64,000 nt of DNA from Patescibacteria group bacterium (GCA_018822435.1 JAHJKD010000050.1:1531-65530), one strand, 5' to 3'. Shown: positions 5,604-39,789, counted from the first letter of the stretch. The notes: generated by a model not told the origin, from the sequence alone. Numbers and translations are program-made.

Positions 5604-5973
5604 ATATCTCTCTTGGTTTATCTTGTTCTAAAAAATCTCCTAAATCTCGCTGCAAAACGTCAAAACTAAGAGTGTCTCGAAACATGAATTCTCCATTTTC
5701 TTTTTTTGCTTCCCATACCATTACCGCAAAATTCTTTAAATCTTCTTGCAATCCCTTGATAATTTTCTTGGAAGGATTCGGACCACAAGTCGAACGATCC
5801 AAAGCAAAACCATGATCAATCTGACCTCCGACATCCCATATTTCTCGACTTCCCTCGTAAGGTTCATCAGCATCAATATATTCATATAAAAAACGAAAGG
5901 CATCATTTAAGGCCTTCAAGTCATCTAAGTGGCTTATGAGGCTTAAAAATGTTGTAAACTCTTTTTCAGTCAT
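5587..5973 (-). CDS. Hypothetical protein (in elp3 operon)
   Basis: 128-aa ORF. ATGA start/stop overlap with elp3. No recognisable motif. Confidence 0.5.
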   Translation of the reverse strand: MTEKEFTTFLSLISHLDDLKALNDAFRFLYEYIDADEPYEGSREIWDVGGQIDHGFALDRSTCGPNPSKKIIKGLQEDLKNFAVMVWEAKKENGEFMFRDTLSFDVLQRDLGDFLEQDKPREIYGKNR

Positions 5974-7508
5974 ATATTTTTTACCATATAATTATCCTCT
6001 AAATTATAACCCAATTTTCGATAATAGTCCCTTACACCTACTCCGGAGATAACCCAAAGATTGTCATGGCCAGCTTTCTTAGTCAGAGCTTCTGCTTCAG
6101 CCAATAATTTCTTGCCGAAACCAAAATGCTGGACTGCCTTTTCGCCTTTTGCCAGCTCCAGCATCTGCCCATAAGTATGAAGCTCACGAATAAAAGCTTT
6201 TTCTCCCAATCTCAATCGACAAAAAGCAAATAAATATTTTTCATCAGAAGATTCATAAGTTAAAAATATTTCTTTACCGCCTGAAGCCACATAGCCTCTT
6301 TTTACTAACTTGGCCTCACTCAAATCTACTTTAGCCTCACGCGGCTCTCTACATCTGATGCATTTGCACTCAACTCCCCCATCTTGAAGTAATTGCCTCA
6401 AATTAGACACAGTGCTTCCCGCCACGATCGACTCCTGGGGAATATCGCGAATTAATCTCGCAATCCTGACATACTCAGGCATCTCTTTCTTTACCTTTTT
6501 AAGCAATCCTACCAATTCTTCAGTAGTATATGGCTTATACTTTCCCTCTTTATACCATTTATATAATTCCGATCCTTTCGTGACTACGCACGGATAAATT
6601 TTAATCTGGTCTGGCTTAAAATCCGGATTTGTAAATAACTCCCGGAACATCTTATGGTCCTTATCCAAATCAGAGCCCGGCAGATTCGGCATCATATGAT
6701 AAGTTATTTTAAATCCGGCATCTTTTAATAATTTAGTCGCTTGAATAGTTTGCTCTACTCTATGCCCTCTCTGGTTTAGGTCTAAAATATCATCATAGAC
6801 AGTTTGCACGCCCAGCTCGACCCGAGTCGCCCCAAAATCTAACATACGCTGCACTTCTTTTTCATCTACATAATCCGGCCTGGTCTCCAGAGTTAGCCCC
6901 ACCACTCTATGTTCTGCTGTCTCATTTAGTTTCTTAGCCTCTTCCAAATCTTTAGATTCTTTTTTATTATAACCATCATAACAACGCTTAATAAAATCCT
7001 CCTGATATTCCGGCGGCAAGCAAGACCATGTTCCGCCCATCACAATCAACTCACACTTATCTGTCGGATGACCATTGTCATACAAAGCCCGCAGTCTCAT
7101 TTCCACTTGCTTATAGGGATCAAACTCACATAAAACTGCCCGCATCACCGCTGGCTCATTAGAAAGATAAGATTTAGGCATGTCTTTTTCCGTAGGGCAA
7201 TAAACACATTTTCCCGGGCAAGGATGTTCGCGAGTTAAAACAGAAATCACTGCCACACCCGATAAAGTTCGGACATCTCTTTTTCGAAGCATTCTAAAAA
7301 GCTGTTCGTCTTCTTTTATCTCCCCTTTTTTTACTAGAGATCTATATGCCTTAAGAATTTCCGCATTTGTCGCCATGCCTGTGCCATCTTTCTTGGCAAT
7401 CTCTCCTTTTATACGTCGAAGCTGGATCACGTTCTTGGGCTTTTCTTTTATGGCTAATTTTACCAATTCTTCTAGGGCTTTTTTCATAGGGTTATTATAT
7501 ATGAACAT
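5970..7508 (-). CDS. elp3: Elongator Elp3-like radical-SAM/GNAT tRNA-modification enzyme
   Basis: 512 aa. Radical-SAM Cys cluster HPCPGKCVYCP after LSGVAVISVLT, as in archaeal Elp3. C-terminal GNAT block FGFGKKLLAEAE...VISGVGVRDYYRKLGY. Confidence 0.85.
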   Translation of the reverse strand: MFIYNNPMKKALEELVKLAIKEKPKNVIQLRRIKGEIAKKDGTGMATNAEILKAYRSLVKKGEIKEDEQLFRMLRKRDVRTLSGVAVISVLTREHPCPGKCVYCPTEKDMPKSYLSNEPAVMRAVLCEFDPYKQVEMRLRALYDNGHPTDKCELIVMGGTWSCLPPEYQEDFIKRCYDGYNKKESKDLEEAKKLNETAEHRVVGLTLETRPDYVDEKEVQRMLDFGATRVELGVQTVYDDILDLNQRGHRVEQTIQATKLLKDAGFKITYHMMPNLPGSDLDKDHKMFRELFTNPDFKPDQIKIYPCVVTKGSELYKWYKEGKYKPYTTEELVGLLKKVKKEMPEYVRIARLIRDIPQESIVAGSTVSNLRQLLQDGGVECKCIRCREPREAKVDLSEAKLVKRGYVASGGKEIFLTYESSDEKYLFAFCRLRLGEKAFIRELHTYGQMLELAKGEKAVQHFGFGKKLLAEAEALTKKAGHDNLWVISGVGVRDYYRKLGYNLEDNYMVKNI

Positions 7509-7517
7509 CGAATTTTA

Positions 7518-7535
7518 GACGAACTCGAATTAGTT
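7518..7535. repeat. Left arm of an 18-bp perfect inverted repeat flanking the GxxExxY gene
   Basis: gacgaactcgaattagtt. Exact reverse complement at 8356-8373. Confidence 0.8.
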
Positions 7536-8324
7536 CCTAATAAAATTCCAATTTAATCTTGTCCTATTGAAGTTTGCAATTAATCCTAGCTTAATATTAA
7601 AATATTTCAAGTTTTTCTTCATTTTTTCAATTTCAATTTCTGATATTTCTTTCACTGCTAAAACTCTAACTAATATTTTATTTTCAATAAAAAATAATTT
7701 TACATCGCTTTCCCCAAGGATTTCTCCCTTAAAAGACATGGATTTTTTCTTTTTATACAAAAAGGGAATGCCATTATTTCTTAATTCTATCCATAAGGCC
7801 CTTCTATATACATAATGAAAAAATCCTGGCCCTAAAATTGAATGAACTATTAATAAACAATCAAGAACATCTTTCGATAATCCTGGATAAAGCAAATCAG
7901 GTTTAATAGTTATTTCATTTTTTGGTTTAAAATTTTTATTTTTTAATTTTAAATTATTTATAACTCTCTCATACTGTGCCTTTTCTGATCCAAAATTCAT
8001 TAATATTCCTAAGGAGTAATCAGTAACTTTCAAATAAGAAATTAATTGGGCGATATTAATAGGATGAATTTCATCTCGCGCCTTCAATTCTAAAATTATT
8101 TTATCTTGCACAACAATATCAGGACGACAAAATCCTATTTTATGTCCTTTATAAAGCATGTCTAAAGGTTTCTCTAAAACAAAATTAATTTTCTTTTTGT
8201 TTAAACCAATCGCCATTGCTTTCTGATATATTTCCTCTTTATGTCCTGGGCCAATTTTATTATAAACATCATAATAGACACCTTGTACTAAATAAGATAA
8301 TTCCGGAAAAATAATTTCAGTCAT
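7530..8324 (-). CDS. Tandem two-domain GxxExxY protein (PD-(D/E)XK-like)
   Basis: 264 aa with two repeats of the GxxExxY-family pattern (LVQGVYYDVYNKIGPGHKEEIYQKAM...; ...GPGFFHYVYRRALWIELRN...). Confidence 0.6.
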   Translation of the reverse strand: MTEIIFPELSYLVQGVYYDVYNKIGPGHKEEIYQKAMAIGLNKKKINFVLEKPLDMLYKGHKIGFCRPDIVVQDKIILELKARDEIHPINIAQLISYLKVTDYSLGILMNFGSEKAQYERVINNLKLKNKNFKPKNEITIKPDLLYPGLSKDVLDCLLIVHSILGPGFFHYVYRRALWIELRNNGIPFLYKKKKSMSFKGEILGESDVKLFFIENKILVRVLAVKEISEIEIEKMKKNLKYFNIKLGLIANFNRTRLNWNFIRN

Positions 8325-8355
8325 AAAATATATGGATAATTAATAAATAATTAAA

Positions 8356-8373
8356 AACTAATTCGAGTTCGTC
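8356..8373. repeat. Right arm of the 18-bp perfect inverted repeat
   Basis: aactaattcgagttcgtc = reverse complement of 7518-7535. Confidence 0.8.
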
Positions 8374-8512
8374 CCAAATTCGGTGTTCATATTCCTCATA
8401 CCAATTCGCGCCCGCGTATGATTCGCGGTAGTCTTCGCGATTGCCAATAAAAAAACGCCCAATGTTTGCCATTTGGACGCCGTAGTTATATATTAAAGGA
8501 AAGAATAACATT

Positions 8513-9190
8513 ATGCAACCATCGCAAGCTCGTGAAATATTGGCCCAAGTTAAGGCTGATTACGATAAAATTGCCCCTCATTTTGCTCAAACCAGGGCAC
8601 AAGGCTGGTCAGAATATGAGGAATTTAAGCCCTATTTAAAAAAAGGCGACGAAGTCTTGGATTTAGGCTGCGGCAATGGCCGTCTTGTTGAATTCCTAAT
8701 TCCTCTTGGAATTAAATACACAGGCTGTGATAATTCTAATCAATTATTAAAATTTGCGTCGGAAAAATATACTGACACCAAATTTGTCGTCGGTGACTTC
8801 ATGCATCCCCCTTTTGAAAAAGAAGAGTTTGATGTGGTCATGGCCATTGCCAGCTTGCATCATGTTCCTTCAGGGGAATTACGCCTGAGAGCCTTAAAAG
8901 AAATTTATCGTATTTTAAAACCAGGTGGATATCTGCTTATGACCAATTGGTATCTTTATCAAAAAAAATATAAGAAGTATATTAAAAATAATAAGGGCAA
9001 AATGGACAAAGGTGACGCCATAATCCCCTGGAAAGACAAATACGGAAATACCCAAGCAGAAAGATATTACCATGCCTTCAAACAAAAAGAGCTCAGCAAG
9101 CTAGCTAGGCAAATCGGTTTTAAAGTTATTTCCCAAAATATGAACGAATCAAAACAAGAAAGAAATATTGTCAGCATTTGGAAAAAATGA
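8513..9190 (+). CDS. Class I SAM-dependent methyltransferase
   Basis: 225 aa. Motif I VLDLGCGNGR, motif post-I, LKPGGYLL. Confidence 0.8.
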   Translation: MQPSQAREILAQVKADYDKIAPHFAQTRAQGWSEYEEFKPYLKKGDEVLDLGCGNGRLVEFLIPLGIKYTGCDNSNQLLKFASEKYTDTKFVVGDFMHPPFEKEEFDVVMAIASLHHVPSGELRLRALKEIYRILKPGGYLLMTNWYLYQKKYKKYIKNNKGKMDKGDAIIPWKDKYGNTQAERYYHAFKQKELSKLARQIGFKVISQNMNESKQERNIVSIWKK

Positions 9191-38529: not shown

Positions 38530-39789
38530 ATGCCTAATTTAGAAACCAGAATGGGCTCAAAGCCCGCCACACAAGAAGGTGCTAAACAAGACAGAAAAAT
38601 AAAAGGTGTAAGAGCAGAACAGCCTACTCAGGCTGATGCTGATGCATTGCAGGCTGCTTTTCCTGATAAAAAAATCAAGCAAGCCATTGCCGCTCAAGAT
38701 GCTGACCAAATTGCGGCTGTAAAAAAGAAAATGGGTGTTGATCCTAGTGTTGCGCAAAAGCGCCCTGGCGAAACAACTGGTGAATACAAAACCAGACTAT
38801 CCCGATACAATCTGGAAGAAAATTATGGCGCCCCGAAAAAACCTGTTTCTGCCGCTGCTATGAAACCTGGCGAAGTAATGGTGGCCCGCAAAGATCCAGG
38901 CCAGCCTGTCCAGCCTGTTGAGGAAGTTAAATCCAAACTAGACGACTTAATGAGTGAATACGTAAACCTTCGCACCAAGATGAAAAAACTTGAAGGCAAA
39001 GGCTTTGCTTTCTTTAAAAAAGCTCGCCTTAACCGCCTCAAACAAATGGAAGGAAATCTAAATACCCAAGTTGCCGAACTGACTCCGATTGAAAATAGAA
39101 AAGATGCTCGTGCGCTTTATGACAGAATGGACATCAATTTAGGTGACCGCATGACTGCCAATGCCCGCGCGGAAGTAGAAAAACAAAATGCCTCTTATAT
39201 GGAAGCAATTGGTCCGGCTTTAGAAGCCCGGCGTGTAGCTGAAGCGGAAAAAAGCCTTGGCGAAGCAGCTGCAGCCAGAGAAGAGGAAATGGCGGCTTAT
39301 CGTCCCATTACTGACGTTGAGGAAAATATTACTGAAAAACAGCCAGATGTAACTGAACAATTAGAATTAATTGAAGAAAAACCTGATGTAAGTGAAGATC
39401 TTGAATTAGTTGATGAAACAAAACCGACAAGAAAAGATATGGAAGGAGCAATTCAAGCCAGAAAAATTTTAGTTGAAGATATGGGTGAAATTGAGGCTGG
39501 CGACGACGAACCAACTGATGAAGAAATTGCTGCTCAAATGGAAGAAATTAATCTACAATTAGCCGAAGAAGAAAAAGCTGCCAGAATGGCAAAATATCCT
39601 AAGGCTATTAAGCTAAAAGAGGGTACTCAGCCTGAACCATATGCGGGGGGCCCGACTCTAACGGAAAGCTCCGCTCCAAAATCTGCCACGCAAGTGCCAG
39701 AAAAGGATCTGCCTGAATTAAAACTTGATGATGAAGTTGAAGAAATCGAACTGGATGAAGATGATAAAGACCAGGCTGCGTCAGCTTAA
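38530..39789 (+). CDS. Charged coiled-coil/low-complexity protein with conserved N-terminal module (paralogue of 38215)
   Basis: 419 aa. Shared N-terminal roughly 40-aa motif. Acidic C-terminal half. Confidence 0.55.
   Translation: MPNLETRMGSKPATQEGAKQDRKIKGVRAEQPTQADADALQAAFPDKKIKQAIAAQDADQIAAVKKKMGVDPSVAQKRPGETTGEYKTRLSRYNLEENYGAPKKPVSAAAMKPGEVMVARKDPGQPVQPVEEVKSKLDDLMSEYVNLRTKMKKLEGKGFAFFKKARLNRLKQMEGNLNTQVAELTPIENRKDARALYDRMDINLGDRMTANARAEVEKQNASYMEAIGPALEARRVAEAEKSLGEAAAAREEEMAAYRPITDVEENITEKQPDVTEQLELIEEKPDVSEDLELVDETKPTRKDMEGAIQARKILVEDMGEIEAGDDEPTDEEIAAQMEEINLQLAEEEKAARMAKYPKAIKLKEGTQPEPYAGGPTLTESSAPKSATQVPEKDLPELKLDDEVEEIELDEDDKDQAASA

Follow-up and report, generated by a model that had tools for sequence, protein, structure and literature searches.

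The closest described systems to the element reported here are those formed by repetitive extragenic palindromic (REP) sequences and REP-associated tyrosine transposases (RAYTs), among them 'REPtrons', REP doublets forming hairpins (REPINs) and RAYTs flanked by terminal inverted repeats (PMC3733652, PMC5581495, PMC8266576). In these systems a single nuclease gene has copies of its cognate short repeat, inverted relative to each other, on its two sides; further copies are scattered through intergenic spacers, singly, as inverted dimers (hairpins) or in clusters, near the 3' ends of open reading frames (ORFs); repeat variants track the enzyme lineage; and the gene copy is often single and vertically inherited. 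We analysed a stretch of 64,000 nucleotides (nt) from a Patescibacteria group bacterium (hereafter the window) in which a gene for a tandem-domain GxxExxY protein, lying between a methyltransferase gene and an Elp3-type gene, is bracketed by an inverted repeat, and found that this locus and its relatives resemble REP/RAYT systems in these respects. We think it probable that the arms of the repeat are the terminal units of a GxxExxY cassette, comparable to REP/RAYT systems or to insertion sequences (IS) and miniature inverted-repeat transposable elements (MITEs), and that its sole protein is a PD-(D/E)XK nuclease that would recognise the units.

The likeness does not extend to the enzyme or to the form of the repeat. 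The protein is a PD-(D/E)XK nuclease (PF13366) and not a Y1 HUH (IS200/IS605-type) transposase, and in the tandem clade it is a pseudo-dimer with one dead active site. Unlike a REP, the single GxxExxY unit is not palindromic and consists of two or three direct sub-repeats, in the form of ACGAAT...ACGAAT about 16-17 nt apart or of three copies of CGCAGAGG at a period of about 9 nt. Nor does it carry an invariant GTAG or CGTC tag; an outer CTAC/GTAG is frequent, but column 4 is a T in just 49% of the copies.

A sequence-only reading of the window had drawn attention to an exact 18-bp inverted repeat around the gene. This repeat is real: GACGAACTCGAATTAGTT lies at 7518-7535 on the plus strand and its perfect reverse complement at 8356-8373. 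These are the only exact copies in the window, where no further copy occurs at two or fewer mismatches and the sole three-mismatch match lies at position 39394; dinucleotide shuffles lead one to expect 0.06 matches at up to three mismatches, and the shuffles rule out a chance origin of the inverted repeat. The repeat is also wider than first described, each arm extending to 43 nt at 88% complementarity (Table 1), and the 18-bp core is the best-kept part of two inverted copies of a conserved repeat of about 35 nt. The arms (ATATGAACACCGAATTTGGGACGAACTCGAATTAG) represent a diverged unit type in which both CGAAT half-sites are retained; against the Patescibacteria unit profile the downstream unit, D1, scores 27.3 bits and the upstream unit, U2, 27.8 bits. 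As had been noted, the left arm extends across the gene's stop codon (TAA, 7530-7532, minus strand), and it covers the final three codons as well. The GC content of the cassette is 26-28%, whereas that of its flanks is about 40%.

The flanked gene encodes, as that reading had proposed, a tandem-domain protein of 264 amino acids (aa). It matches PF13366 (PDDEXK_3) twice (1.2e-54; 184.1 bits against a cut-off of 22) and the TIGR04256 'GxxExxY protein' profile (188.2 bits against a cut-off of 35), and its two halves share 27% identity (E=1e-13). The description of the protein as a double GxxExxY protein is borne out for the domains and not for the motif, which is present in the N-terminal half only. 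E30, D69, E79 and K81 of the N-domain are invariant among 39 aligned tandem homologues, and the ExK motif is missing from the C-domain of the window protein and of all 39. Because the C-terminal half has lost ExK, the tandem protein can be regarded as a covalent pseudo-dimer with one live active site. The predicted fold resembles Cas4 and restriction endonucleases; the Protein Data Bank (PDB) holds no relative by sequence, and the absence of a match in PADLOC gives no indication that the cassette belongs to a defence system. A search of 1.84 billion representatives returned 26,483 clusters (at 50% identity) at E<=1e-3, and 272 clusters reached E<=1e-30; within this very large superfamily the tandem clade forms a modest branch. 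A 2012 survey of PD-(D/E)XK proteins gave the function of PF13366 as 'Unknown' and noted multiple transfers (PMC3424549), and we found no later work on the function of GxxExxY, PF13366 or TIGR04256 proteins in the searchable literature.

The repeat unit measures about 33-43 nt and goes with the GxxExxY gene, not with the Elp3/methyltransferase locus. Tandem homologues in Chloroflexota and other phyla occupy unrelated sites (purE/purK, MFS/GFO_IDH, reverse transcriptase (RT)/Cas1, and a position upstream of a methyltransferase-PMT_2 gene), and each has inverted repeats of 23-31 nt with one architecture, for example GATGACAACGAATTTTAGAAAGGAACGAATT. A metagenome scan with the protein alignment gave 80 further unique loci out of 360 relatives; at 58 of the 80 the tandem gene stands between inverted copies of the unit ACAACGAAT-N10-AACGAAT, the best upstream/downstream inverted match there scoring at least 3 above the best shuffle. 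The consensus of 167 distinct copies, CAC[T/A]ACA[A/G]CG[A/G]ATT..G.A...AACG[A/G]ATT, consists of two direct half-sites about 16-17 nt apart and is not self-complementary. The unit profile gives a canonical layout of '> gene <', with 9-50 nt between the end of the forward unit and the ATG and 0-110 nt between the stop codon and the start of the inverted unit. Units occur at 5.32 per kb within 300 nt of the gene versus 0.077 per kb beyond, and 319 kb of Elp3 control loci contained no unit match of 8 bits or more.

Cassettes take up nearly the exact length of operon-type spacers: the one at locus L046 begins 2 nt past the purE stop codon and leaves 3 nt to the purK start. At 46 of 55 loci the gene points the same way as the upstream neighbour, and at 42 of 53 the same way as the downstream one. 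Extra units are frequent around the genes, as hairpin pairs or arrays. Units are amplified beside the genes at L082, L097, L123, L126 and L133 and at L098 and L117, either as pairs of alternating orientation (period 84-121 nt, up to 8 on one side) or as head-to-tail runs (period 25-39 nt), and such arrays resemble clusters of REPs or of bacterial interspersed mosaic elements (BIMEs). At L053 (2004-5307) a tandem cassette with several units lies inside a CRISPR adaptation module, Cas6-RT-[cassette]-Cas1-Cas2; a GxxExxY gene beside a CRISPR-associated RT is mentioned in a published pipeline note (bioRxiv 10.1101/2021.01.26.428298).

Single-domain GxxExxY genes show the same arrangement: inverted repeats of 16-32 nt enclose the gene at six of nine loci, and five of the six arm sets (25-32 nt) are built of two or three sub-repeats. 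These loci are in Bacteroides finegoldii (radA/FAD-dependent protein; arm TTCACCACAGAGGACGCAGAGGACACGGAG), Bernardetia (ade/manC), Sphingomonas (fabD/fabG), Gemmatirosa (arms of 32 nt, 100% matching), Treponema and one viral contig, and a scan of viral contigs for single-domain relatives gave one locus only. Copies of the units without a gene, which we call orphans, are dispersed. The Gemmatirosa unit occurs at no fewer than 40 places (>=40) in each of two replicons of about 1 Mb, with three GxxExxY-homologous places by tblastn, in one of those two replicons; a 40-kb stretch without the gene carries units at three sites. The Bacteroides unit forms intergenic unit-loop-unit hairpins of 75-185 nt in 13 Bacteroides records; they begin 0-12 nt past stop codons in spacers such as gmd/fcl, lptB/der and dnaN/exonuclease, and a single 24.8-kb B. 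finegoldii record holds one cassette and two orphans. Unit, gene and inverted unit together make up a compact cassette, and the gene-less pairs are its hairpin, or MITE/REPIN-like, form.

A check of the genome for further copies, suggested by the sequence-only reading, led to a related orphan on the window's own contig, just outside the window. An inverted pair, ACATCGAATTTAAGACAATCGCGAATTA ... ACTAATTCGAGTCTGTCTAAGATTCGATGT, fills the 93-nt spacer between folD and ychF (L001:18478-18566, identical to L002:14437-14524), about 7.7 kb from the cassette and about 150-240 nt ahead of the window's first base. The right-hand unit of the pair agrees with the 18-mer in 16 of 18 positions. We considered and set aside the idea that this pair is a deletion derivative retaining a remnant of the ORF: its inward similarity to the cassette is uninformative because the longer arms account for it.

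Mobility of the family is indicated by a 915-nt cassette that is present, 100% identical, in two contexts, purE/purK and an unrelated flank. Identity stops directly after the outer end of the inverted unit (...ATTCGTTGTCATCAC), and Logan contigs break exactly at the cassette ends. Occasional duplications of flanking gene sequence, of 11-150 nt, occur at L060, L088, L097 and L126. At L126 (330-720) two diverged copies of the final 50 or so codons of a PfkB-like kinase enclose an orphan pair; at L097 a 43-nt copy of the downstream gene's 5' end stands upstream of the cassette; and L088 and L060 have exact flank repeats of 17 nt and 11 nt. Separately, a 1.4-kb insertion with an IS1595/ISXO2-like transposase ORF parts the upstream unit from the gene at L073 (339-1622, minus strand), and L076, 99% identical to L073, is without it.

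At the locus in the window the history of the cassette can be followed by comparing relatives. The gene's two nearest homologues, with 52% and 48% identity, occupy this same spot, methyltransferase <- [gene] -> Elp3, in sister Patescibacteria whose Elp3 proteins are 74-85% identical to that of the window. The inverted repeats there, of 42-53 nt, have diverged from those of the window and match within each genome. Arm-to-arm identity inside one genome is 88, 79 and 81% in the three Patescibacteria, above the 62-78% found when orthologous arms are compared across the species; the two arms therefore evolve in concert. The comparison of the Elp3-methyltransferase spacer that had been proposed shows it filled in these two sister species and empty at 13 or more (>=13) more distant loci, where the two genes are divergent and 0 to about 220 nt apart, in some cases with overlapping start codons, and where there is neither a GxxExxY gene nor arm-like sequence. 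Given these empty sites in distant relatives, the cassette appears to have been inserted in the ancestor of a small clade. It is present in all six contigs with an identical Elp3, which come from several samples, and we read the window copy as an old insertion, now fixed and vertically inherited in a small clade of Patescibacteria, and not as a recent one. The suggestion of a mobile mini-cassette is accordingly supported for the family, by its unrelated loci, two-context copy, dispersed gene-less copies and empty distant sites, and does not hold for the window copy as a recent insertion.

Two further ideas about this locus can be judged here. A site for a trans-acting recombinase, or an inverton, is not supported: no recombinase or transposase is encoded within 10 kb on either side, and the orientation of the GxxExxY gene relative to Elp3 is constant in the three species. 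The arms might also be duplicated operator or promoter elements that co-regulate the divergent Elp3 and methyltransferase genes, with GxxExxY as a passenger. Such a role would suit the fact that, read outward, each arm is oriented alike towards its flanking gene, and that the left arm abuts a conserved TATAAT of Elp3 in an arrangement common to the three species. Yet where relatives lack the GxxExxY gene, the methyltransferase/Elp3 spacer is free of arms, the same unit architecture accompanies unrelated GxxExxY loci in other phyla, and an orphan pair stands at folD/ychF. The empty sites and the unrelated loci contradict a locus-specific operator, which we regard as highly improbable.

We compared the two arms column by column at 41 canonical loci. 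The bases of the half-sites and three spacer bases are essentially invariant. At the A/G columns 11 and 27 the two arms of a locus are alike at a frequency of 0.97-0.98, versus 0.52 between loci, and both half-sites of a unit are nearly always the same variant (CGAAT/CGAAT, CGGAT/CGGAT or CAGAT/CAGAT). The distribution of unit variants, the ACCACGGAT...ACACGAT and ATATGACAACGAAT types among them, goes with the protein clades. The other spacer columns are alike at 0.37-0.59 within a locus versus 0.34-0.48 between loci, and 71 of 164 arm mismatches (43%) are transversions. What is kept in the arms, with conserved half-sites and near-background spacers, is thus a bipartite motif and not complementarity between partners. 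This constraint favours sequence-specific recognition, which might most simply be by the co-inherited nuclease, over a selected stem.

A stem is what would be expected if the element acted at the level of RNA, with arms in the 5' and 3' untranslated regions of the GxxExxY transcript pairing with each other across the gene. Such a stem might let RNase III or a similar enzyme cut the ORF from an operon transcript, or might stabilise or insulate the ORF, in the manner of 23S rRNA intervening sequences that contain ORFs; orphan hairpins would then act on mRNA as REPs do, and the nuclease itself might be the RNase. Folding makes a long-range stem, which the sequence-only reading had also raised, thermodynamically possible: the full-length window transcript forms the arm-arm stem in both its minimum free energy and its centroid structures, with z = -3.8. 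The co-orientation with neighbouring genes, the tight fit in operon-like spacers, the placing of the units just before the ATG and soon after the stop, the position of orphans 0-12 nt past stop codons and the concerted evolution of the arms in the three Patescibacteria all suit the RNA proposal too, and mismatches compatible with G:U pairing are in mild excess on the sense strand (56 versus 37). However, this wobble bias is weak and is confounded by strand-biased deamination (C-to-T, non-template strand), and across the 41 loci, where spacer columns are hardly more alike within than between loci and transversions are common, the spacer positions of the two arms are not kept complementary in the main clade. 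The invariant bases and the co-varying specificity base point to recognition of sequence and not to pairing, and an RNA function leaves the identical cassette in two contexts and the pattern of presence and absence unexplained. No Rfam family matched the window, the cassette loci or the orphan hairpins at either gathering or permissive thresholds; sub-threshold plant and animal miRNA hairpins were all that came back, which disposes of a known RNA family. The RNA explanation is weakened by these results, and we consider it unlikely.

We return to a cassette whose ends would be recognised by its own protein. The PD-(D/E)XK nuclease would recognise the direct half-sites within each unit, in the tandem clade as a covalent pseudo-dimer with one live active site, and would cut at or beside paired units. 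The cassette and its gene-less derivatives might then be copied or moved by host break repair or recombination, which would be needed because a hydrolytic nuclease cannot transfer strands alone; an alternative route of spread would be homing into pre-existing orphan pairs. The window copy would be an old insertion into a methyltransferase/Elp3 pair that was ancestrally back to back, with arms that are still kept alike.

Homing can also be taken as the whole explanation. The palindromic orphans would have come first, and GxxExxY would be a homing endonuclease that cuts between two inverted units; its gene would be copied into the cut site by repair and would therefore always be found between inverted units. 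A hydrolytic nuclease suffices for this, and the strict '> gene <' layout, the co-evolution of protein and unit, the excess of orphans over genes and the two-context cassette are all accounted for. Against this, we found no site that holds an orphan pair in one relative and a filled cassette in another, and no orphan is present at the empty methyltransferase/Elp3 sites. Homology arms would measure just about 30 nt, and the spread of the orphans themselves is left unexplained. The folD/ychF orphan shares the inner extension of the arms, but is uninformative here. We rate this version as somewhat less likely again than an RNA element.

Several points weigh against a mobile cassette with a unit-recognising nuclease. 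PD-(D/E)XK enzymes hydrolyse DNA and do not carry out strand transfer. We infer both the binding or cutting of units by the protein and the way in which copies spread, and the correlation between protein clade and unit variant would arise from linkage alone. No consistent short target-site duplication is present in 11 simple cassettes, for which no closely related empty site is available, and 22 of the 80 metagenomic loci have no significant inverted repeat, some of them having short flanks or divergent unit types. In the three Patescibacteria the arm spacers co-vary, as a selected stem would also show. The window copy is not polymorphic, all six contigs with the identical Elp3 being filled, and it could have been domesticated. 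Finally, the orphan copies could be moved by a different enzyme, such as a RAYT encoded elsewhere in these genomes.

The cassette also shares features with other classes of element without fitting any of them. Like an IS or a MITE, the gene is bounded by terminal inverted repeats (30-43 nt), gene-less derivatives share its ends, and one copy recurs unchanged in different contexts, the match stopping at the outer edge of the repeat; several binding-site-like sub-repeats per end recall IS ends of the IR/DR type. Unlike these elements, it encodes no DDE, HUH, serine or tyrosine transposase (Pfam and NCBIfam matches are to PDDEXK_3 and GxxExxY only), shows no consistent target-site duplication, is very small (about 0.45-0.9 kb), and is almost always co-oriented with its neighbours in an exact fit to operon spacers. 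Membership of the REPtrons and of the IS/MITE class fails because the defining enzyme, an HUH or DDE transposase, is absent, and membership of the REPs fails on unit structure as well. The intervening sequences (IVS) of 23S rRNA that contain ORFs likewise hold a small ORF of unknown function in inverted repeats able to form a long stem, but the GxxExxY cassette lies outside rRNA, its arms are constrained in sequence and not in pairing, and it has dispersed gene-less copies. Genome annotations place GxxExxY genes in settings like those of the 'four helix bundle / 23S IVS protein' family (TIGR02436), which we take as a lead only. Single integron attC sites differ from the cassette, in which inverted repeats stand on both sides of the gene. 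Like free-standing PD-(D/E)XK homing endonucleases, the GxxExxY nuclease is encoded by a small gene lodged between conserved neighbours (fabD/fabG, purE/purK, radA, Elp3), and the distribution is patchy, with multiple transfers for PF13366 (PMC3424549); homing endonuclease genes, unlike GxxExxY cassettes, have no conserved bounding inverted repeats and no gene-less repeat derivatives.

Table 1. Coordinates of the GxxExxY cassette and adjoining features in the window
Feature	Position	Strand	Remarks
Elp3-type radical-SAM gene	5970-7508		divergent flanking gene; range from longest-ORF start, ATG 7508
Elp3 start (probable)	ATG 7487-7485	-	MKKALEEL; used by the source records' gene callers, giving 505 aa
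TATAAT box	7499-7494	-	abuts outer end of D1
D1, downstream terminal unit ('left arm')	7499-7541	+	inverted relative to gene; arm of the 43-nt, 88% repeat
D1 half-sites CGAAT, direct	7509-7513 and 7526-7530	+	match to CGAAT-N12-CGAAT; exact core 7518-7535
Tandem-domain GxxExxY / PD-(D/E)XK gene, 264 aa	7530-8324	-	sole ORF between the arms
N-domain	about 8324-7950	-	GHKEEIY; E30, D69, E79-x-K81 (E79-L-K81)
C-domain	about 7905-7533	-	degenerate copy; GFFHYVY, without ExK
U2, upstream terminal unit ('right arm')	8350-8392	-	forward relative to gene; ends 25 nt before ATG
U2 half-sites (ATTCG on plus strand)	8361-8365 and 8378-8382		exact core 8356-8373
U1, extra GC-rich degenerate forward unit	8400-8432	-	GACTACCGCGAATCATACGCGGGCGCGAATTGG on minus strand; in tandem with U2; CGAAT-N12-CGAAT at 8404-8425
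Methyltransf_11 gene	8513-9190		divergent flanking gene

Beyond the two arms, a scan of the window found no more copies of the 18-mer, the gene or the unit profile except U1. This extra unit scores 22.3 bits against the profile, aligns to the single unit of locus L009 and has no partner unit on the Elp3 side. No second ORF with a family match lies inside the cassette. A 64-aa ORF across the right arm and U1 (8317-8511, minus strand) has no family match, and we take it as most likely spurious; in the sister contigs some gene callers place a 51-aa ORF at this position.

The true start of Elp3 is probably the ATG at 7487, and the longest-ORF start at ATG 7508 is probably wrong. The sequence TATAAT-N6-ATGAAA is kept in all three cassette-bearing species. 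Because the TATAAT abuts the outer end of D1, this unit would lie in the -35 region of the likely Elp3 promoter, and the Elp3 transcript would probably be nearly leaderless. On the other side, between the methyltransferase start and the units, a GC-rich imperfect hairpin is followed by a T7 run (GGCGTCCAAATGGCAAACATTGGGCGTTTTTTT, about 8447-8482, minus strand); it is present with some changes in the three cassette-bearing species, is absent from empty-site relatives and overlaps the predicted methyltransferase promoter (8466-8494). The divergent Elp3/Methyltransf_11 pair itself recurs in many metagenome-assembled genomes of Patescibacteria and other groups (L013, L015, L019-L023, L025-L028, L031, L039), its spacer often 0-60 nt and some start codons overlapping (CATG). 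The two could be linked tRNA U34 modification genes, with a Trm9-like methyltransferase acting after Elp3.

No description of the flanking repeats turned up in the searchable literature under the family names, the unit sequences or the Bacteroides repeats, and we found none of GxxExxY cassettes or repeat elements in Rfam or the PDB. Within the limits of that literature, GxxExxY elements with inverted units are apparently an undescribed family of what may be small selfish DNA elements. The instance in the window is an ordinary resident member, and its interest lies in the pattern seen at the level of the family. More tentatively, and with a little less than even confidence, we propose that GxxExxY (PF13366) proteins as a whole are the cognate nucleases of unrecognised multi-phylum repeat elements, selfish or domesticated, that behave like REP/RAYT systems: their genes would be bounded by inverted, lineage-specific units of direct sub-repeats, and the same units would occur as REPIN/MITE-like hairpins.

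For genome annotation, these findings allow cassette boundaries to be identified, the starts of neighbouring genes to be corrected (here that of Elp3) and assembly breaks induced by the repeats to be flagged. They also offer a first functional lead for the large orphan family PF13366/TIGR04256, namely that its members may act sequence-specifically on their own repeats. If this is true, a second enzyme class would be added to the REP/RAYT paradigm, many unannotated intergenic hairpins in the operon spacers of Bacteroides, Gemmatimonadota, Chloroflexota, Patescibacteria and others would be explained, and such elements would be present in cultivable gut Bacteroides.

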